DNA of 64,000 bases from Oligoflexales bacterium (GTDB taxonomy: Bacteria > Bdellovibrionota_B > Oligoflexia > Oligoflexales > JAPPIL01), in the NCBI GenBank assembly GCA_965215515.1, contig OZ244057.1, positions 1,215,717-1,279,716 on the forward strand. The letters run 5' to 3'. Position 1 is the first letter of the stretch. Each line of letters opens with the position of its first letter. Under the pieces are notes generated by a model. The model worked only from the letters and a program-made list of their open reading frames with translations, had not been told where the DNA came from and searched no databases. Both the position numbers and the translations under genes were made by a program. Below, one piece after another: positions 4,355-11,059 of this stretch.

Positions 4355-6079
4355 GTGGGGATGCGCGGTTGTTTGGGGTGTTATCTGTGGGTGAATGTGC
4401 TGGCTGGCTGTCAGGTGGTACAGTCACAGGGCAAGCGTGCCGAGGCTACCCGCACCTTTGCCGAGTTGAGCCTGCAGGAGAAATATACCTACCTGCGTGC
4501 GGTGCTGAAGGCACAAGAGCAAGCTATTCGTGCAACGCGCATCGCACGGGTGAAAAGCCATCGCGAGCAGTTGACCCATCGGGTTGATTTACAGGCGGTG
4601 ATGATCGACAACGGGGTCGACCGCCCGCAGCTGATTCGCCTGAGCTGGAGTCCTGTGCAGGCGGATAGCATCGAGTTGTTACGCTGCCAAGCAAAAGACA
4701 TCGCCGCAGACAAGACGGTAGCGCCTGACACAACAGTGGTTGCAGCTGGCTATGATTTCGATCATCTGCTAAGTAAGCCTAACGACTACGGGTTTCTGAG
4801 TTGTCGGCGTGTCTACGGGGAAATAAAAAATGGCACGAGCATTGTCGATTACTTGGCAGAGAATGAATTCAGCTACAACTATTTCCTGCGTCCTTGTTTT
4901 AAAAACTATGTCCTTACCGCTCCCGCGACAGATGCCAGTAAAGATGAGGAGTGTGGCGAGGAGAAGATAGTCGCAGCCGAAAACCAACAAAATGACACCG
5001 ACACAGCAGAGCAAACGAAGCTGGTATTCAGATATTGCCCAACCGCGGCGCGGCAAGTGTGCTCGAAAATAGTGAGTAAAGCTAACGGCGACAACAGCCC
5101 TCCGCTCTCTTTCAATCGAGGTATGCCTAGGCTCCCTACCCATTTATCTGCTGAGCTGAAGCGATTAACAGAAAAAATTGACCATCATGAAAATAAAGTG
5201 TGGGAATTGAGCGGTGGGGTGCTTGGAAAAATTTTAAATAATCCCATATCTCAAGACACTGCAAAACATGGGGGAATGCAAGCTGAGCTTAGCGGATTAT
5301 ATGAAGAGCATAAGGATGATATGGTCACACGCATGGACAGAGCTGAAGAGATGCGGGGAAATATTGAAATGTTAGCTGATAATATGCAAGCATCTGTCAA
5401 TAGTTCTATCGATGATTATGTCAGGATAGCCAATCAGCAACAACTGCCAGAGAGCCTCGGACTAGAGTTGTCGTTTGGTAAAAATAATTGCTATGGTGAC
5501 TATAAGGAGGTGAAGGAACAATTCTCGGTGGAGCGTCAGATCGAGCAGGGGCGCGCCGCACGCCGCAGTACATATACCGCGGTAGTAGACTCTGAGGAAA
5601 CAAGGCAGCAGGAAGAGCAGTTAAGGGAAGGGGCAGAAGAGTTAAAGGGATATGAGGATGCTGTAGTGGGTTTGGCGGTGGGCGGATGTCTCGTTAGCTC
5701 CTTGGCTGAAGTTGGTAAGCTGGTAAATTTAAATCCTTTAAAAAAAGGTTTTTTATCCCAAAAAATGCCTGAGGGTTTTAGCAGTCCAGATTGGAATCTA
5801 GCCGCGGTAAATGTTGTTACGAGTTTAATACCTATGGAGAACTCGCAGCTCAATAAACCTGACAGCATCACTGCTTTTGTCGATGCTCTGCATGGCATTT
5901 TTGCTGGGGCTGATACCTACGTCAAAAATCATTGTAAAGCTTGTTTAGATTATATAGCTGAGCTTAGGTATCACACCCGACAAATTCGTTATCTTCAGGA
6001 ACGGCTAGCAACACTGAATGTGGAGATAGACGAGGAACTTAGGAAAAAAGGAGCTATTGATGATCCTCATGCGCCGTGA
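4355..6079 (+). CDS. hypothetical lipoprotein, first gene of a 5-gene coupled operon (coiled-coil rich)
   Basis: 574-aa ORF. Probable start ATG 4361 after a GGGAGG RBS. Lipobox-like LAGC at residues 17-20. Long charged/coiled-coil segments and one internal hydrophobic stretch (AVVGLAVGGCLVSSLAEVG). AT-richer than flanking genes. Confidence 0.55.
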   Translation: MGMRGCLGCYLWVNVLAGCQVVQSQGKRAEATRTFAELSLQEKYTYLRAVLKAQEQAIRATRIARVKSHREQLTHRVDLQAVMIDNGVDRPQLIRLSWSPVQADSIELLRCQAKDIAADKTVAPDTTVVAAGYDFDHLLSKPNDYGFLSCRRVYGEIKNGTSIVDYLAENEFSYNYFLRPCFKNYVLTAPATDASKDEECGEEKIVAAENQQNDTDTAEQTKLVFRYCPTAARQVCSKIVSKANGDNSPPLSFNRGMPRLPTHLSAELKRLTEKIDHHENKVWELSGGVLGKILNNPISQDTAKHGGMQAELSGLYEEHKDDMVTRMDRAEEMRGNIEMLADNMQASVNSSIDDYVRIANQQQLPESLGLELSFGKNNCYGDYKEVKEQFSVERQIEQGRAARRSTYTAVVDSEETRQQEEQLREGAEELKGYEDAVVGLAVGGCLVSSLAEVGKLVNLNPLKKGFLSQKMPEGFSSPDWNLAAVNVVTSLIPMENSQLNKPDSITAFVDALHGIFAGADTYVKNHCKACLDYIAELRYHTRQIRYLQERLATLNVEIDEELRKKGAIDDPHAP

Positions 6080-6088
6080 TGTTTTTTT

Positions 6089-8673: not shown

Positions 8674-9962
8674 TGCACCTTCTGCTCACCCTAGTGCTAG
8701 TACTGAGCGGCTGTAAGTGGCAGGGAGAGGAGGCAACTGTTGCTGCGGCTAAAAAAGCACAGGACATCGGCAGTGTGGTCAGCGATATCTCGGGCGAGTA
8801 TGTGTGCCCGCAAAAAATAGATGTTGCGGACATGTATGTTGATTTTCTCGGTGCGGGGGTGCAGACGACACGGAGTGGACGTTTTGTGCGTCTCTTTTTC
8901 AATGCCTACCTGTGTCGTGATTATCTGGAGATAATGCGTTGTAAAGAGGAGAAACGCAAAGGACTAACGTGCAGTGATGGAACAAGCCTTTTCGTCCCTC
9001 AGGGTTCTGTGCAGGACAGACAAGCTATGCTGAACAGTCCGCATGGGAGTACCGTAAACCGTGCACGTTTGCGTGATTGCTGGAACAGCATTGCTCAAGC
9101 TACTGCCAGCAACAGCTGTGTGCTGCTGGGAGGATACGACGATGGAGGAGAGGGACGAACGGGGCGCATCTATGCCGCCGAGCATTTTATCGACGCTACT
9201 GCTCCTGCAGGGCAGGAGTTTTTTTATCTCGCCCGTGTCTGTGTACATGCCGATCGCGCCGATGAGCTTACTTCGGGGAACGATACTTGCAGTCAGCGAT
9301 TGCATGTTTCCAACGTAGTTAGCGGTTTGGAGCAGGATGAAATCGACAACGCCGTGCTGGCAGCACGGGAGAAGGTGGCCGCCCTGGCGGCGCGTTTGAA
9401 CCACATGACGGAGAGGGCGTACAGAATAACTTTAAAATTCAGTGAGGTATTGGATAAACAGCAAGAAAATGAGATCGCCAGGGAGCGCAGCAAACGTTTT
9501 CGGCAAGGTATTGCGGTGATTGCGGGGATGGCTGTGGGAGCGATGGGGGCGGTATATACGGGGGGTAGTATCAGCTCGCTCAGCTCTGGACTCGATGCAG
9601 GACAAGCGTTGGGAGCGGCCTTTGCCGATGTTATTGTTTTCGCCAACGACTACCCCAAGACATGCACGGAATGCTTACAGCTGCAGGCTGAGTTGATAGA
9701 AGTCGTCGGTGATTACAGGGGCGTTAACTTTGACCCGTTTAACCAGGAGGGTGCACGAACGGCTGTGGACGCAGCCGCCCCGCTAGTAGGAGGACCAGAA
9801 AGCCGAGCGATAGCGGATAGCATTGCGGGAGCTACGTATCATCAAGTTCTGGTACGATATGAAGATGCCATCAGCGAGTTAGCTGGTCTGTTGGAAGAAA
9901 AACAGCGTCATGATGCAGAGGGGAGATTGTCTGACGCAGATGGCCAGGGAGGGCCGCTATAG
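8649..9962 (+). CDS. hypothetical lipoprotein with C-terminal glycine-zipper transmembrane anchor (operon gene 4; paralog of gene 5)
   Basis: 437 aa. Lipobox LSGC (HLLLTLVLVLSGC). C-terminal hydrophobic GxxxG-rich segment (GIAVIAGMAVGAMGAVYTGG). Shares the block FFYL.R.C...C...helical region...TM with the next ORF. Confidence 0.55.
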   Translation: MCGEGNRIVHLLLTLVLVLSGCKWQGEEATVAAAKKAQDIGSVVSDISGEYVCPQKIDVADMYVDFLGAGVQTTRSGRFVRLFFNAYLCRDYLEIMRCKEEKRKGLTCSDGTSLFVPQGSVQDRQAMLNSPHGSTVNRARLRDCWNSIAQATASNSCVLLGGYDDGGEGRTGRIYAAEHFIDATAPAGQEFFYLARVCVHADRADELTSGNDTCSQRLHVSNVVSGLEQDEIDNAVLAAREKVAALAARLNHMTERAYRITLKFSEVLDKQQENEIARERSKRFRQGIAVIAGMAVGAMGAVYTGGSISSLSSGLDAGQALGAAFADVIVFANDYPKTCTECLQLQAELIEVVGDYRGVNFDPFNQEGARTAVDAAAPLVGGPESRAIADSIAGATYHQVLVRYEDAISELAGLLEEKQRHDAEGRLSDADGQGGPL

Positions 9963-11059
9963 TGATGCGTTTTATGTGCAGCTGGTTGCTATTGCTTGCT
10001 TGCCAAGAGAAGCTGGTAGCACCTGATTATACGCAACAGGGTGTCTCTGCTGAGGCGCAGGCACTTGCCCCGCTTTTCGATCCAGACAAGTTACCCAACA
10101 TCTTGGGGGAAAAAAACGCCTATCTAGAAGCAAAGTTTGCGGAATCAGACAGCATGGTGCCTAAGGTAGATATCGATTTAAGCGCTGGCAAAACGAACTT
10201 CTATGAGATTCAACGTTGCCCCGCAGGGGTTGCCTTAAAGACGGCCGCGGGAGATGATCCTTTAACCCATAGCTATGCGTCGGAGACGCAGAAGCGTCAG
10301 GACTATCTCTATGTGTGGGGCAAGGCGGCGGCGGGTGCATGCACGTTGTTGGAGGGGATACACATCTCTACACCTTTTGTCGATGATTTTGGGACAGAAC
10401 AAGGTGATAACCTTGCTAGTTTTTTCTATCTTGTGCGTCCTTGTTTGTTTGGCAATAATTCTATTTATCGTGGCCGTCGCGTTTGCAGTCATGCCTTTGC
10501 CCGCACGGAAGTTATCGCAGGCTATGTCAACCCGATCGTCTCCGCGCAACATGATAATAGAGCGAAGCTGGCGCAGCGGCGGACGCGTTTGGAGCATCGC
10601 ATGGCGCAGATGGCCAGTGTGGTGCGAGAAAAGGCGTATTATCTTTCGCAGTGCGAAGTGCGTGAGGCGAAGAAGAATGCCCTCAAGCGCCGTCTGGCAG
10701 GTATAGCTAAAGTTTATCTGACCGCCACCGCTATAACGACCGCGGCGATCCTCTCTGGGGGCACAGCGGCCTTCTTGGCGGGCACGGCGACCATTCAACT
10801 CGGCGATAAGCTGTTTGCTGGTGTCAGCAATGCGACGTTGCACTGCCCTACCGCTGCCTACGACAAGCGTATCAGGGCATTGCGCGATGATGCGGAGGAG
10901 ACTGCCCAGAGAATTGGGGAGCTGCGGGAAGCACTAGGAGAAATAGCTCCAGCAGGAAAAGAGCCACCCCCTGTCGATGAAGCCGTGCAAGTAGTGGGCG
11001 TGAACGAGGCATGTCAGGCAGAGGGGCTAGGCGCGCACTGCCTAGCAGATGGTACTTAA
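9962..11059 (+). CDS. hypothetical lipoprotein with C-terminal glycine-zipper transmembrane anchor (operon gene 5; paralog of gene 4)
   Basis: 365 aa. GTG start overlapping the upstream TAG by 1 nt. Lipobox LLAC (SWLLLLAC). SFFYLVRPC...C motif and C-terminal AILSGGTAAFLAGTAT segment, parallel to gene 4. Confidence 0.55.
   Translation: MMRFMCSWLLLLACQEKLVAPDYTQQGVSAEAQALAPLFDPDKLPNILGEKNAYLEAKFAESDSMVPKVDIDLSAGKTNFYEIQRCPAGVALKTAAGDDPLTHSYASETQKRQDYLYVWGKAAAGACTLLEGIHISTPFVDDFGTEQGDNLASFFYLVRPCLFGNNSIYRGRRVCSHAFARTEVIAGYVNPIVSAQHDNRAKLAQRRTRLEHRMAQMASVVREKAYYLSQCEVREAKKNALKRRLAGIAKVYLTATAITTAAILSGGTAAFLAGTATIQLGDKLFAGVSNATLHCPTAAYDKRIRALRDDAEETAQRIGELREALGEIAPAGKEPPPVDEAVQVVGVNEACQAEGLGAHCLADGT

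Follow-up and report, generated by a model that had tools for sequence, protein, structure and literature searches.

What do the five closely packed lipoprotein genes of this Oligoflexales genome encode together, and did they reach it as a horizontally acquired island? We analysed these genes within a 64,000-nucleotide stretch of DNA, here called the window, and compared them with related loci in other genomes.

Results

ORF calling reproduced the five same-strand ORFs of 574, 168, 696, 437 and 365 aa that a preliminary description had placed at 4355-11059, tightly packed and conserved, together with the secreted divergent pair that it had noted beside them (ORFs at 2607-4270). The flanks were also as it had named them, with rpsU (11120-11311) and bioB/bioF-like ORFs to the right and nuoB and uppS to the left. 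By sequence comparison the module is larger than first described, and the divergent pair, gm1 and gm2, belongs to it. The whole forms one conserved seven-gene divergon, in which gm1 and gm2 are read leftward and g1 to g5 rightward, and its products are two secreted Cys-rich proteins and five lipoproteins:

2607-3629, minus strand: gm2, secreted Cys-rich protein of 340 aa, second gene of the leftward operon
3614-4264, minus strand: gm1, first gene of the leftward operon, encoding a secreted Cys-rich product of about 216 aa
4287-4313, minus strand: predicted sigma-28 (FliA)-type promoter for gm1-gm2, its -10 box ending 22 nt from the gm1 ATG
4315-4341, plus strand: predicted sigma-28 (FliA)-type promoter for g1-g5, its -10 box ending 19 nt from the g1 ATG at 4361
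4361-6079, plus strand: g1, lipoprotein (LAGC), divergent third paralog with a poorly conserved hydrophobic helix
6069-6595, plus strand: g2, small Cys-rich helical lipoprotein (LGSC), starting at TTG 6089 as assembled
6082-6090, plus strand: run of nine Ts at the g1/g2 junction, where an extra T would join ATG 6069 to the g2 frame (by comparison with the junctions of L004 and L001)
6598-8673, plus strand: g3, lipoprotein of 691 aa (LCAC)
8673-9962, plus strand: g4, lipoprotein of 429 aa (LSGC)
9965-11059, plus strand: g5, lipoprotein (LLAC), paralog of g4

Several gene starts were revised. The gm1 start is ATG 4264, the longest ORF extending to 4270, and gm1 and gm2 overlap by 16 nt. The g3 start was moved to ATG 6598, 2 nt past the g2 stop (database version P0022), and homologue comparison placed the g5 start at ATG 9965, after a gap of 2 nt. 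The g4 start is GTG 8673, in a 1-nt TAGTG overlap with g3 (database version P0001). The spacings quoted earlier came from longest-ORF calls. Overlapping starts and stops are not the sign of a co-translated complex that they were taken for, this being ordinary operon packing and insufficient alone.

Of seven further genomes in which the flanks were complete, L001-L005 and L012 showed the seven-gene layout, and the remaining one, L006, retained g1-g5 and gm1. The search for co-occurrence across genomes that had been proposed for these genes recovered a co-conserved cluster. Around the module the flanking genes differed from genome to genome, with protein identity down to approximately 30%. The three families searched (g3, g4 and gm2) were largely found together on the same long contigs; the gm2 family comprised 16 proteins, and most long contigs with gm2 also bore g3/g4. 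Orthologues of gm2 were present in five other genomes and those of gm1 in related genomes and also at L006, a distant locus (E = 6e-13) that likewise holds a g2 homologue (E = 8.5e-9). All relatives came from uncultured MAGs, with frequent arrays of three or four paralogs in distant loci.

The earlier statement that g1-g5 fit no known family agreed with our searches, which gave no significant match in Pfam, NCBIfam, PHROGs or PADLOC; across these databases and the PDB, none of the seven families had a match. By these sequence searches all seven families are undescribed. Three candidate families were considered and set aside. The SlyB/Pcp glycine-zipper family PF05433 had no match among the window proteins and one among 76 relatives, at E = 0.009, under the threshold. 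A type III translocon (SseD/EspB-like) was approached by NF052420 only at E = 0.66 against a 130-bit cut-off, and T3SS genes were absent from the window ORFs scanned and from related loci. The module proteins did not show a ClyA-type fold or family (Pfam Bacillus_HBL, HlyE).

The lipobox Cys claimed for all five of g1-g5 was confirmed, with its position kept in the 5-6 genomes compared, and the lipoboxes listed above fit the pattern tested, [LVI][ASTVIC][GAS]C; acylation and LspA cleavage of g1-g5 are predicted from them. For g2 the fit requires that the T run be corrected by 1 nt. As assembled, merely 6 residues precede its lipobox Cys, and the signal peptide MRRDVFFLLCLGSC, which resembles the MRSSVLILLYLCSC of homologues, requires ATG 6069 and one extra T. 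Asp at position +2 was found in none of the lipoproteins; the +2 sorting rule was worked out in E. coli and may not apply to this host. Each module protein has 7-14 cysteines, most of them conserved. Their pairwise conservation suggests intramolecular bonds, and the large number of conserved pairs speaks for an oxidising environment, in the periplasm or at the surface.

Genes g4 and g5 had been called clear paralogs. Paralogy was firmly supported by profile comparison (hhalign 96%, E = 2.4e-9), but it is weak in pairwise alignment (26% over 101 aa, E = 2e-5). A third paralog is g1 (hhalign g1 vs. g4 92%, E = 6.5e-7; superfamily HMM on g1 E = 2.8e-5), and these profiles identify g1, g4, and g5 as ancient paralogs. 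Each is predicted to combine an FN3-like sandwich with a helical bundle containing a glycine-zipper helix pair; the AF2 models were of moderate quality (pLDDT 61 and 71), with the helix pair itself <50. In g4 (numbering from 8649) the predicted FN3-like beta-sandwich spans aa ~55-225 and the bundle aa 234-429; the glycine-zipper helix pair lies at aa 287-332 (nt 9507-9644), with a Kyte-Doolittle hydropathy of 1.6-1.9, a CxxC (C339/C342) follows it, and a conserved GGP(P/L) tail ends the protein. The corresponding pair of g5 (numbering from 9962) is Ala/Thr/Gly-rich, occupies aa 245-285 (nt 10694-10816) and is flanked by the invariant C231 and C295. Two conserved Cys bracket the helix pair in 71 of 76 distant relatives, and the linker between the paired helices ranges from ~5 to 50 residues, a variation compatible with a soluble bundle as much as with a membrane hairpin. 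A glycine-zipper hydrophobic element within the paralogous set had thus been recognized correctly. It is not a C-terminal anchor, as approximately 100-130 residues come after it, and tethering at both protein ends was not upheld, the hydrophobic helices forming a pair inside the helical bundle.

The predicted order in g3 (numbering from 6583) is a helical hairpin, a PLAT/LH2-like beta-sandwich (aa ~123-290, nt ~6949-7452), then a helical region and finally another beta domain. The sandwich compares with PLAT/LH2 membrane-binding domains (Clostridium alpha-toxin C-domain, lipoxygenase N-domain, pancreatic lipase C-domain), a weak similarity with no Foldseek match at E <= 0.001. The gm2 protein is built of three internal repeats of ~85 aa each, with a GW[LF]...NVxC...RVT motif (self-profile alignment 97%, E = 5e-11).

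Two perfect back-to-back sigma-28 (FliA) sites, TAAA-N15-GCCGATAA, occupy the 84-bp divergent intergenic region, and a GGAGG at 4349-4353 lies ahead of the g1 ATG at 4361. These two were the only perfect matches in the 64-kb window, against a chance expectation of ~0.008. The leftward promoter was also present in L001, L003, L004, and L005, and the rightward one in L001-L005 with 0 or 1 mismatch; in an alignment of four genomes the -10 boxes and the central TTTTAGTAAAAAAAA were invariant. Both arms therefore have canonical sigma-28 promoters by their motifs, and would be FliA-dependent. Genes for sigma-28 or the flagellum were absent from the window ORFs scanned.

In the most distant loci the sigma-28 motif was degenerate or missing. 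L006 and L008 carry GCCGAAAA at the rightward site, with the CGATA core broken, L009 carries TTCGATAA in place of the motif, and none was seen upstream of the module in L010, L011, and L012.

Discussion

The nearest regulatory parallel comes from the same phylum as the module host, in the attack-phase regulon of Bdellovibrio bacteriovorus, where a FliA-like motif, TTAAG-N16-CCGATA, stands at 92 of the 140 promoters active in attack phase, surface-protein promoters among them (Karunker et al. 2013, PMC3627812). The promoter type is alike, TAAA/TTAAG-N15-16-(G)CCGATA(A), and in both cases precedes non-flagellar surface or uncharacterised genes. The two differ in that homology at the protein level linked the module to no named Bdellovibrio gene, and its FliA dependence is predicted from the DNA of an uncultured Oligoflexales bacterium.

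The undescribed secreted and lipid-anchored proteins and the sigma-28 promoters lead us to favour, tentatively and with slightly less than even confidence, a hitherto unrecognized sigma-28-controlled envelope lipoprotein complex acting at the cell surface in a motile, host- or prey-seeking stage. Co-conservation and co-regulation suggest that the products assemble as one hetero-oligomeric complex, which would be lipid-anchored in the outer membrane and is probably membrane-active. Its small-residue helices may pack together or dip into the bilayer, and g3, through its PLAT-like domain, and gm2, through its repeats, could supply lipid or ligand binding. Under sigma-28 control the complex would be made alongside the motility or dispersal programme, and the Bdellovibrio attack-phase regulon makes surface action in the motile stage, by touching a target membrane or inserting into it, the most likely form of its use. 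It is an unlikely extension that the module represents a new class of sigma-28-switched, lipid-anchored, multi-paralog membrane-insertion machine. If so, three FN3-helical-bundle lipoproteins would deploy disulfide-stapled glycine-zipper helix pairs, helped by the PLAT-like lipoprotein and the secreted repeat protein, and the motile stage of host-associated Oligoflexales would thereby attach to a host or prey membrane and breach it or fuse with it.

Other functions would also fit some of these data. The module might build a flagellum-associated structure, either a lineage-specific periplasmic or outer-membrane motor embellishment or a flagellar sheath component, which we regard as improbable. 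Analogues would be the rings that FlgO/FlgP/FlgT, MotX/MotY, and PflA/PflB form in Vibrio and Campylobacter; lipoproteins are found among these, and some flagellar ring proteins are under sigma-28 control. The module likewise encodes lipoproteins and periplasmic proteins side by side, and both of its operons carry canonical promoters for what is in most bacteria the late-flagellar sigma factor (PMC3627812). However, searches with the seven proteins gave no above-threshold match to a flagellar or other family, the decorated-motor proteins (FlgP, FlgO/FlgT, MotX/MotY) share no homology and have a quite different domain content, and no flagellar or chemotaxis gene adjoined the module in the loci examined or occurred among the window ORFs scanned. 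In Bdellovibrio, moreover, sigma-28 governs much more than flagella (PMC3627812), and at least one host-associated Oligoflexia MAG is without flagellar genes (PMC7313196). A stage-specific armour, in which a disulfide-rich lipoprotein shell would give the dispersal form a stiffened or protected outer membrane with no target-cell contact, seems to us a poor prospect as well. Functionally it would resemble SlyB/YfgH or the chlamydial cysteine-rich OmcA/OmcB complex, and it draws on the 7-14 mostly conserved Cys per protein, the stage-specific nature of sigma-28 control and the single relative of 76 that grazed PF05433 (Rick_17kDa_Anti). SlyB/Pcp and YfgH share with the module an N-terminal lipid anchor, a GxxxG/A helix pair and, as predicted for the module, a beta-sandwich. 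Against this, PF05433 matches none of the window proteins, and the module has the opposite domain order, its sandwich preceding the helices; its helix pair sits Cys-bracketed inside a longer bundle, and three paralogs are accompanied by four partners. The paired Cys conservation suggests intramolecular bonds, and FN3-like, PLAT-like and repeat domains are not called for by a protective role.

A lipid-anchored tripartite pore-former, in which g1, g4, and g5, like Hbl, Nhe or AhlABC, would enter a target membrane step by step through their hydrophobic helix pairs, is quite improbable. Three paralogous components are indeed encoded in a single operon (hhalign g4-g5 96%, g1-g4 92%), triplet or quadruplet arrays occur in distant relatives, and the helical bundle houses a hydrophobic helix pair, comparable to the hydrophobic head of the tripartite alpha-PFTs (Hbl, Nhe, AhlABC, SmhABC; ClyA superfamily); an accessory PLAT-like membrane-binding domain is found also in clostridial alpha-toxin. 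Yet no sequence or fold similarity to these toxins was detected, and the proteins here are lipoproteins with a predicted FN3-like domain, one paralog being without a conserved hydrophobic helix. Finally, the earlier suggestion of a horizontally acquired accessory island for an adhesin or toxin-delivery machine is very hard to credit, although a role in adhesion or toxin delivery, taken by itself, is a possible one. Local GC of 0.45-0.52 lies under that of the immediate flanks (0.57-0.59), and the neighbours of the module vary between genomes. The reported AT-richness was right in direction, but it is marginal (module GC 0.512 vs. 0.532 in the rest of the window). The 64-kb window contains no tRNA, and no integrase, transposase or other mobility gene was seen among the ~39 ORFs scanned, so that with this small GC gap recent acquisition was not supported. 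The promoters are of the host's sigma-28 type and recur across the clade. Module GC is 2 points lower than in the rest of the window, five related genomes show a dip of 4-7 points relative to the module flanks, and module GC follows that of each host genome from 0.39 to 0.51; a recurring dip that tracks host GC points to a compositional property of these genes and to long residence.

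Conservation of the module

Seven genes of the window form a conserved unit, which is real and larger than the five lipoprotein genes of the preliminary description. All five of these ORFs were present on the plus strand as first reported (g1 to g5), and to them we add a divergent pair encoding secreted proteins (gm1 and gm2).

2607-4270, minus strand: gm1 and gm2 (gm2 at 2607-3629)
4355-6079, plus strand: g1, longest ORF; start codon ATG 4361
6089-6595, plus strand: g2, ORF as assembled
6583-8673, plus strand: g3, longest ORF; start ATG 6598
8649-9962, plus strand: g4, longest ORF; start GTG 8673
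9962-11059, plus strand: g5, longest ORF; start ATG 9965

The layout, gm2 and gm1 leftward and g1-g2-g3-g4-g5 rightward, was invariant in six homologous loci from other genomes (L001-L005 and L012). The full g1-g5 operon was kept in both L006 and L012, with one gm1 homologue in L006. Identity of the module proteins fell to about 30% between loci and the flanks varied by genome (Peptidase_U32 and rpsU; trehalose-P synthase and CTP_transf; nuoB and rpsU-bioB in the window). Because the layout is constant despite this divergence and the different neighbours, the gm1/gm2 pair belongs to the unit. In agreement with the linked system suggested earlier, g4 and g5 were co-conserved with the other genes in L001-L006 and L012.

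Only 21 relatives of g4 were found among 5.8 billion clusters, with 15 relatives for g3 and 16 for the 340-aa divergent protein gm2, and the three sets largely share their long contigs, some of which are closed genomes (2.2-2.95 Mb). A genome-collection scan returned two module-bearing contigs labelled as uncultured Oligoflexales MAGs, and a third labelled "Pseudomonadota bacterium", whose isolate name (RHO2_bin_21) may point to a sponge sample. Chlamydiae and spirochaetes, entertained as alternative sources, were set aside in view of the Oligoflexales labels. Near two homologous loci we observed a 524-aa, eukaryote-like ankyrin-repeat protein (L001, 91-1665, minus strand) and a weak F-box-like match (L010, 342-1382, minus strand); such neighbours fit a host-associated lifestyle.

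Gene starts and operon structure

The overlaps given earlier between genes were partly artefacts of choosing the longest ORF. The start of g3 was set at ATG 6598, 2 nt past the g2 stop, because its database copy (P0022) has 691 aa, and that of g4 at GTG 8673, within the TAGTG overlap, because its copy (P0001) has 429 aa. The g5 start was placed by comparison with homologues. Tight packing, also seen in the modules of other genomes, had been taken as the hallmark of a co-translated complex; it is ordinary operon structure and provides no evidence for one.

As assembled, g2 has just MLCLGS ahead of its lipobox cysteine, and in homologues it starts within the 3' end of g1 (MRSSVLILLYLCSC). Nine consecutive T occupy the g1/g2 junction (6082-6090) and deprive g2 of a usable signal peptide; with ten T instead of nine, ATG 6069 would encode MRRDVFFLLCLGSC, as in the homologues. 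The homologues compared have no such run at this junction; in the window it reflects either an assembly error in the homopolymer or a genuine site of frameshift or slippage. The g1 orthologue of L003 (Oligoflexales MAG OZ245333, 5584-7331) is broken into two overlapping ORFs of 391 and 216 aa, which suggests a frameshift or an assembly error there too.

Predicted sigma-28 promoters

When the region between gm1 and g1 was aligned across four genomes, three blocks proved invariant (TTATCGGCA, TTTTAGTAAAAAAAA and TGCCGATAA). Read on each strand, these blocks match two back-to-back, perfect sigma-28 (FliA) consensus promoters, TAAA-N15-GCCGATAA, with GCCGATAA as the -10 box, and both arms of the module are thus preceded by predicted promoters of this type.

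4315-4341, plus strand: sigma-28-type promoter for g1-g5; -10 box ends 19 nt before g1 ATG 4361
4313-4287, minus strand: sigma-28-type promoter for gm1-gm2; -10 box ends 22 nt before gm1 ATG 4264

We dropped an operator-type inverted repeat formed by TTATCGGCA and TGCCGATAA in favour of two sigma-28 -10 boxes, which also account for the constant TAAA/TTTA in the middle, for a spacing of N15-16 and for start codons 19-23 nt away on either side. Across the 64-kb window, with up to one mismatch tolerated, the motif matched nowhere but at these two sites, and the chance expectation for perfect matches was about 0.008 by our own calculation. The motif occupied the same position in L001-L005; it was replaced by GCCGAAAA in L006 and L008 and by TTCGATAA in L009, and was not found upstream of the module in L010-L012. 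The seven genes would thus constitute one divergon of the sigma-28 programme. A generic sigma-70 and terminator scan of the window yielded promoters no better than those in shuffled sequence.

Another exact GCCGATAA, the third in the window, is located 22 nt before the start codon of nuoB (2513-2521, minus strand). It was not counted as a sigma-28 site, the nearest TAAA being N11 away and not 15, and is either a variant site or a chance match.

Protein families

The lipobox cysteine described for all five g1-g5 products was retained in every genome compared; gm1 and gm2 carry ordinary signal peptides, and all seven proteins are cysteine-rich. Comparison of family profiles related g4 to g5 (96%, E 2.4e-9) and g1 to g4 (92%, E 6.5e-7) over full lengths, and no other pair of module proteins. 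The paralogy proposed for g4 and g5 was hence verified, but not as a pair only: judged by these profiles, g1, g4 and g5 are ancient paralogs, g1 being the third.

The "glycine zipper" of g4, GIAVIAGMAVGAMGAVYTGG (Kyte-Doolittle 1.6-1.9), is internal and not the C-terminal anchor it was thought to be. Behind it come another helix of small residues, a CxxC, a loop of variable length or sequence, a long helix and finally a GGP(P/L) tail. This conserved tail (G-S-x-G-G-P-P/L, window 9930-9959) is present in 17 of the 21 g4 orthologues, the closer ones, and lacking in the four most distant; it may serve as a signal for sorting or interaction. In gm2, three internal repeats of about 85 aa, GW(L/F)...NVxC...RVT, were detected by self-alignment (97%, E 5e-11), and the protein may have a fold of a new kind, repeat-based or lectin-like.

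Searched exhaustively with HMMER, the g4 profile matched 127 representative clusters of 330-480 aa, 33 of them at E <= 1e-10. Cluster names yielded nothing beyond "hypothetical protein", assigned to MAGs of Oligoflexales and to a single "Zetaproteobacteria" MAG. The helix pair is flanked by two conserved cysteines (C...DDYPRxC) in 71 of 76 superfamily members, among which the inter-helix linker ranges from about 5 to 50 residues. Distant loci carry tandem arrays of three or four paralogs (L009 c-d-e, L011, L010 a-b-c-e), as does one contig from JGI (475-383-341). This defines a new superfamily of FN3-like and helical-bundle lipoproteins with at least 127 representative clusters, typically in three- or four-paralog arrays.

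The earlier failure to assign any of the products to a known family was upheld. None of the seven proteins had a match above threshold in Pfam, NCBIfam, PHROGs or PADLOC, and none of the seven family alignments, used as profiles, matched a PDB sequence. A Pfam scan of the 76 distant superfamily members gave no family and only stray sub-threshold glycine-zipper matches (C19orf12 and Rick_17kDa_Anti). As far as sequence comparison can tell, the module is outside every described family.

Proposed role of the module

We hypothesized that the seven products would together form a single hetero-oligomer, anchored in the outer membrane and located in an oxidising compartment. Helices of small residues would pack together or insert shallowly into a membrane, a putative PLAT-like domain and the repeat domains would bind lipid or ligand, and the complex would work in a motile or dispersal stage, probably touching a host or prey surface. 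Taken as a whole, we give this reading slightly less than an even chance. An accessory of the flagellar motor or sheath is unlikely. Sigma-28 control need not imply a flagellar role: of 140 attack-phase promoters in Bdellovibrio bacteriovorus, 92 are preceded by a FliA-like motif (TTAAG-N16-CCGATA), whose targets include, in addition to flagella, surface anchors, proteases and many proteins that are uncharacterised (PMC3627812), and one sponge-associated Oligoflexia MAG is entirely without flagella (PMC7313196). No flagellar or chemotaxis genes were found among about 30 window ORFs scanned outside the module. The promoters suggest that FliA acts as a stage regulator in Oligoflexales too, as it is known to do in Bdellovibrio.

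Stage-specific envelope armour, resembling SlyB or the chlamydial Cys-rich complex, has a similarly small chance of being correct, and a lipid-anchored tripartite pore-former is quite improbable. The cysteine content recalls the former and the three paralogs the latter; compared with the SlyB family (PF05433), ClyA-type toxins and T3SS translocators, the module proved a member of none, and the likeness is functional only. The acquired island of the preliminary description we regard as highly improbable. GC content was 0.512 in the module vs. 0.532 in the rest of the window, and a dip of 4-7 points recurred in the modules of five related genomes, where absolute GC tracked each genome. The window gave no tRNA and an empty Rfam scan, and no mobility genes were found among about 39 ORFs scanned. 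Recent horizontal transfer is unsupported.

Seven co-inherited and putatively co-regulated envelope proteins, with no relative in curated families or solved structures and behind a textbook-clear sigma-28 promoter pair, offer a concrete starting point for understanding how uncultured Oligoflexales live; members of this group include some recovered as animal cobionts. Were the complex membrane-active, it would represent a new way of achieving cell-cell contact or invasion; were it flagellar, a new part of the motor or sheath.

Other genes in the window

A 541-aa secreted protein (14378-16003, minus strand), which lacks a Pfam family and matches TIGR04551 only below threshold, is a possible outer-membrane beta-barrel; other genomes do not keep it beside the module. 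BamD (YfiO) is encoded at 37966-38889 (minus strand) and a PilT-like T2SSE ATPase at 41991-43070 (plus strand). The 585-aa protein at 39577-41334 (minus strand) has a dockerin type I domain at its C-terminus (E 3.6e-8), which is unusual outside cellulosome-forming Firmicutes. A 1069-aa fusion (54829-58038, minus strand) joins a B12-binding domain, a MeaB GTPase and methylmalonyl-CoA mutase in an IcmF-like architecture. SpoVR-like and DUF444 genes lie side by side at 60836-63432 (minus strand), like the yeaH/ycgB pair, with the next ORF at 63435-63965.
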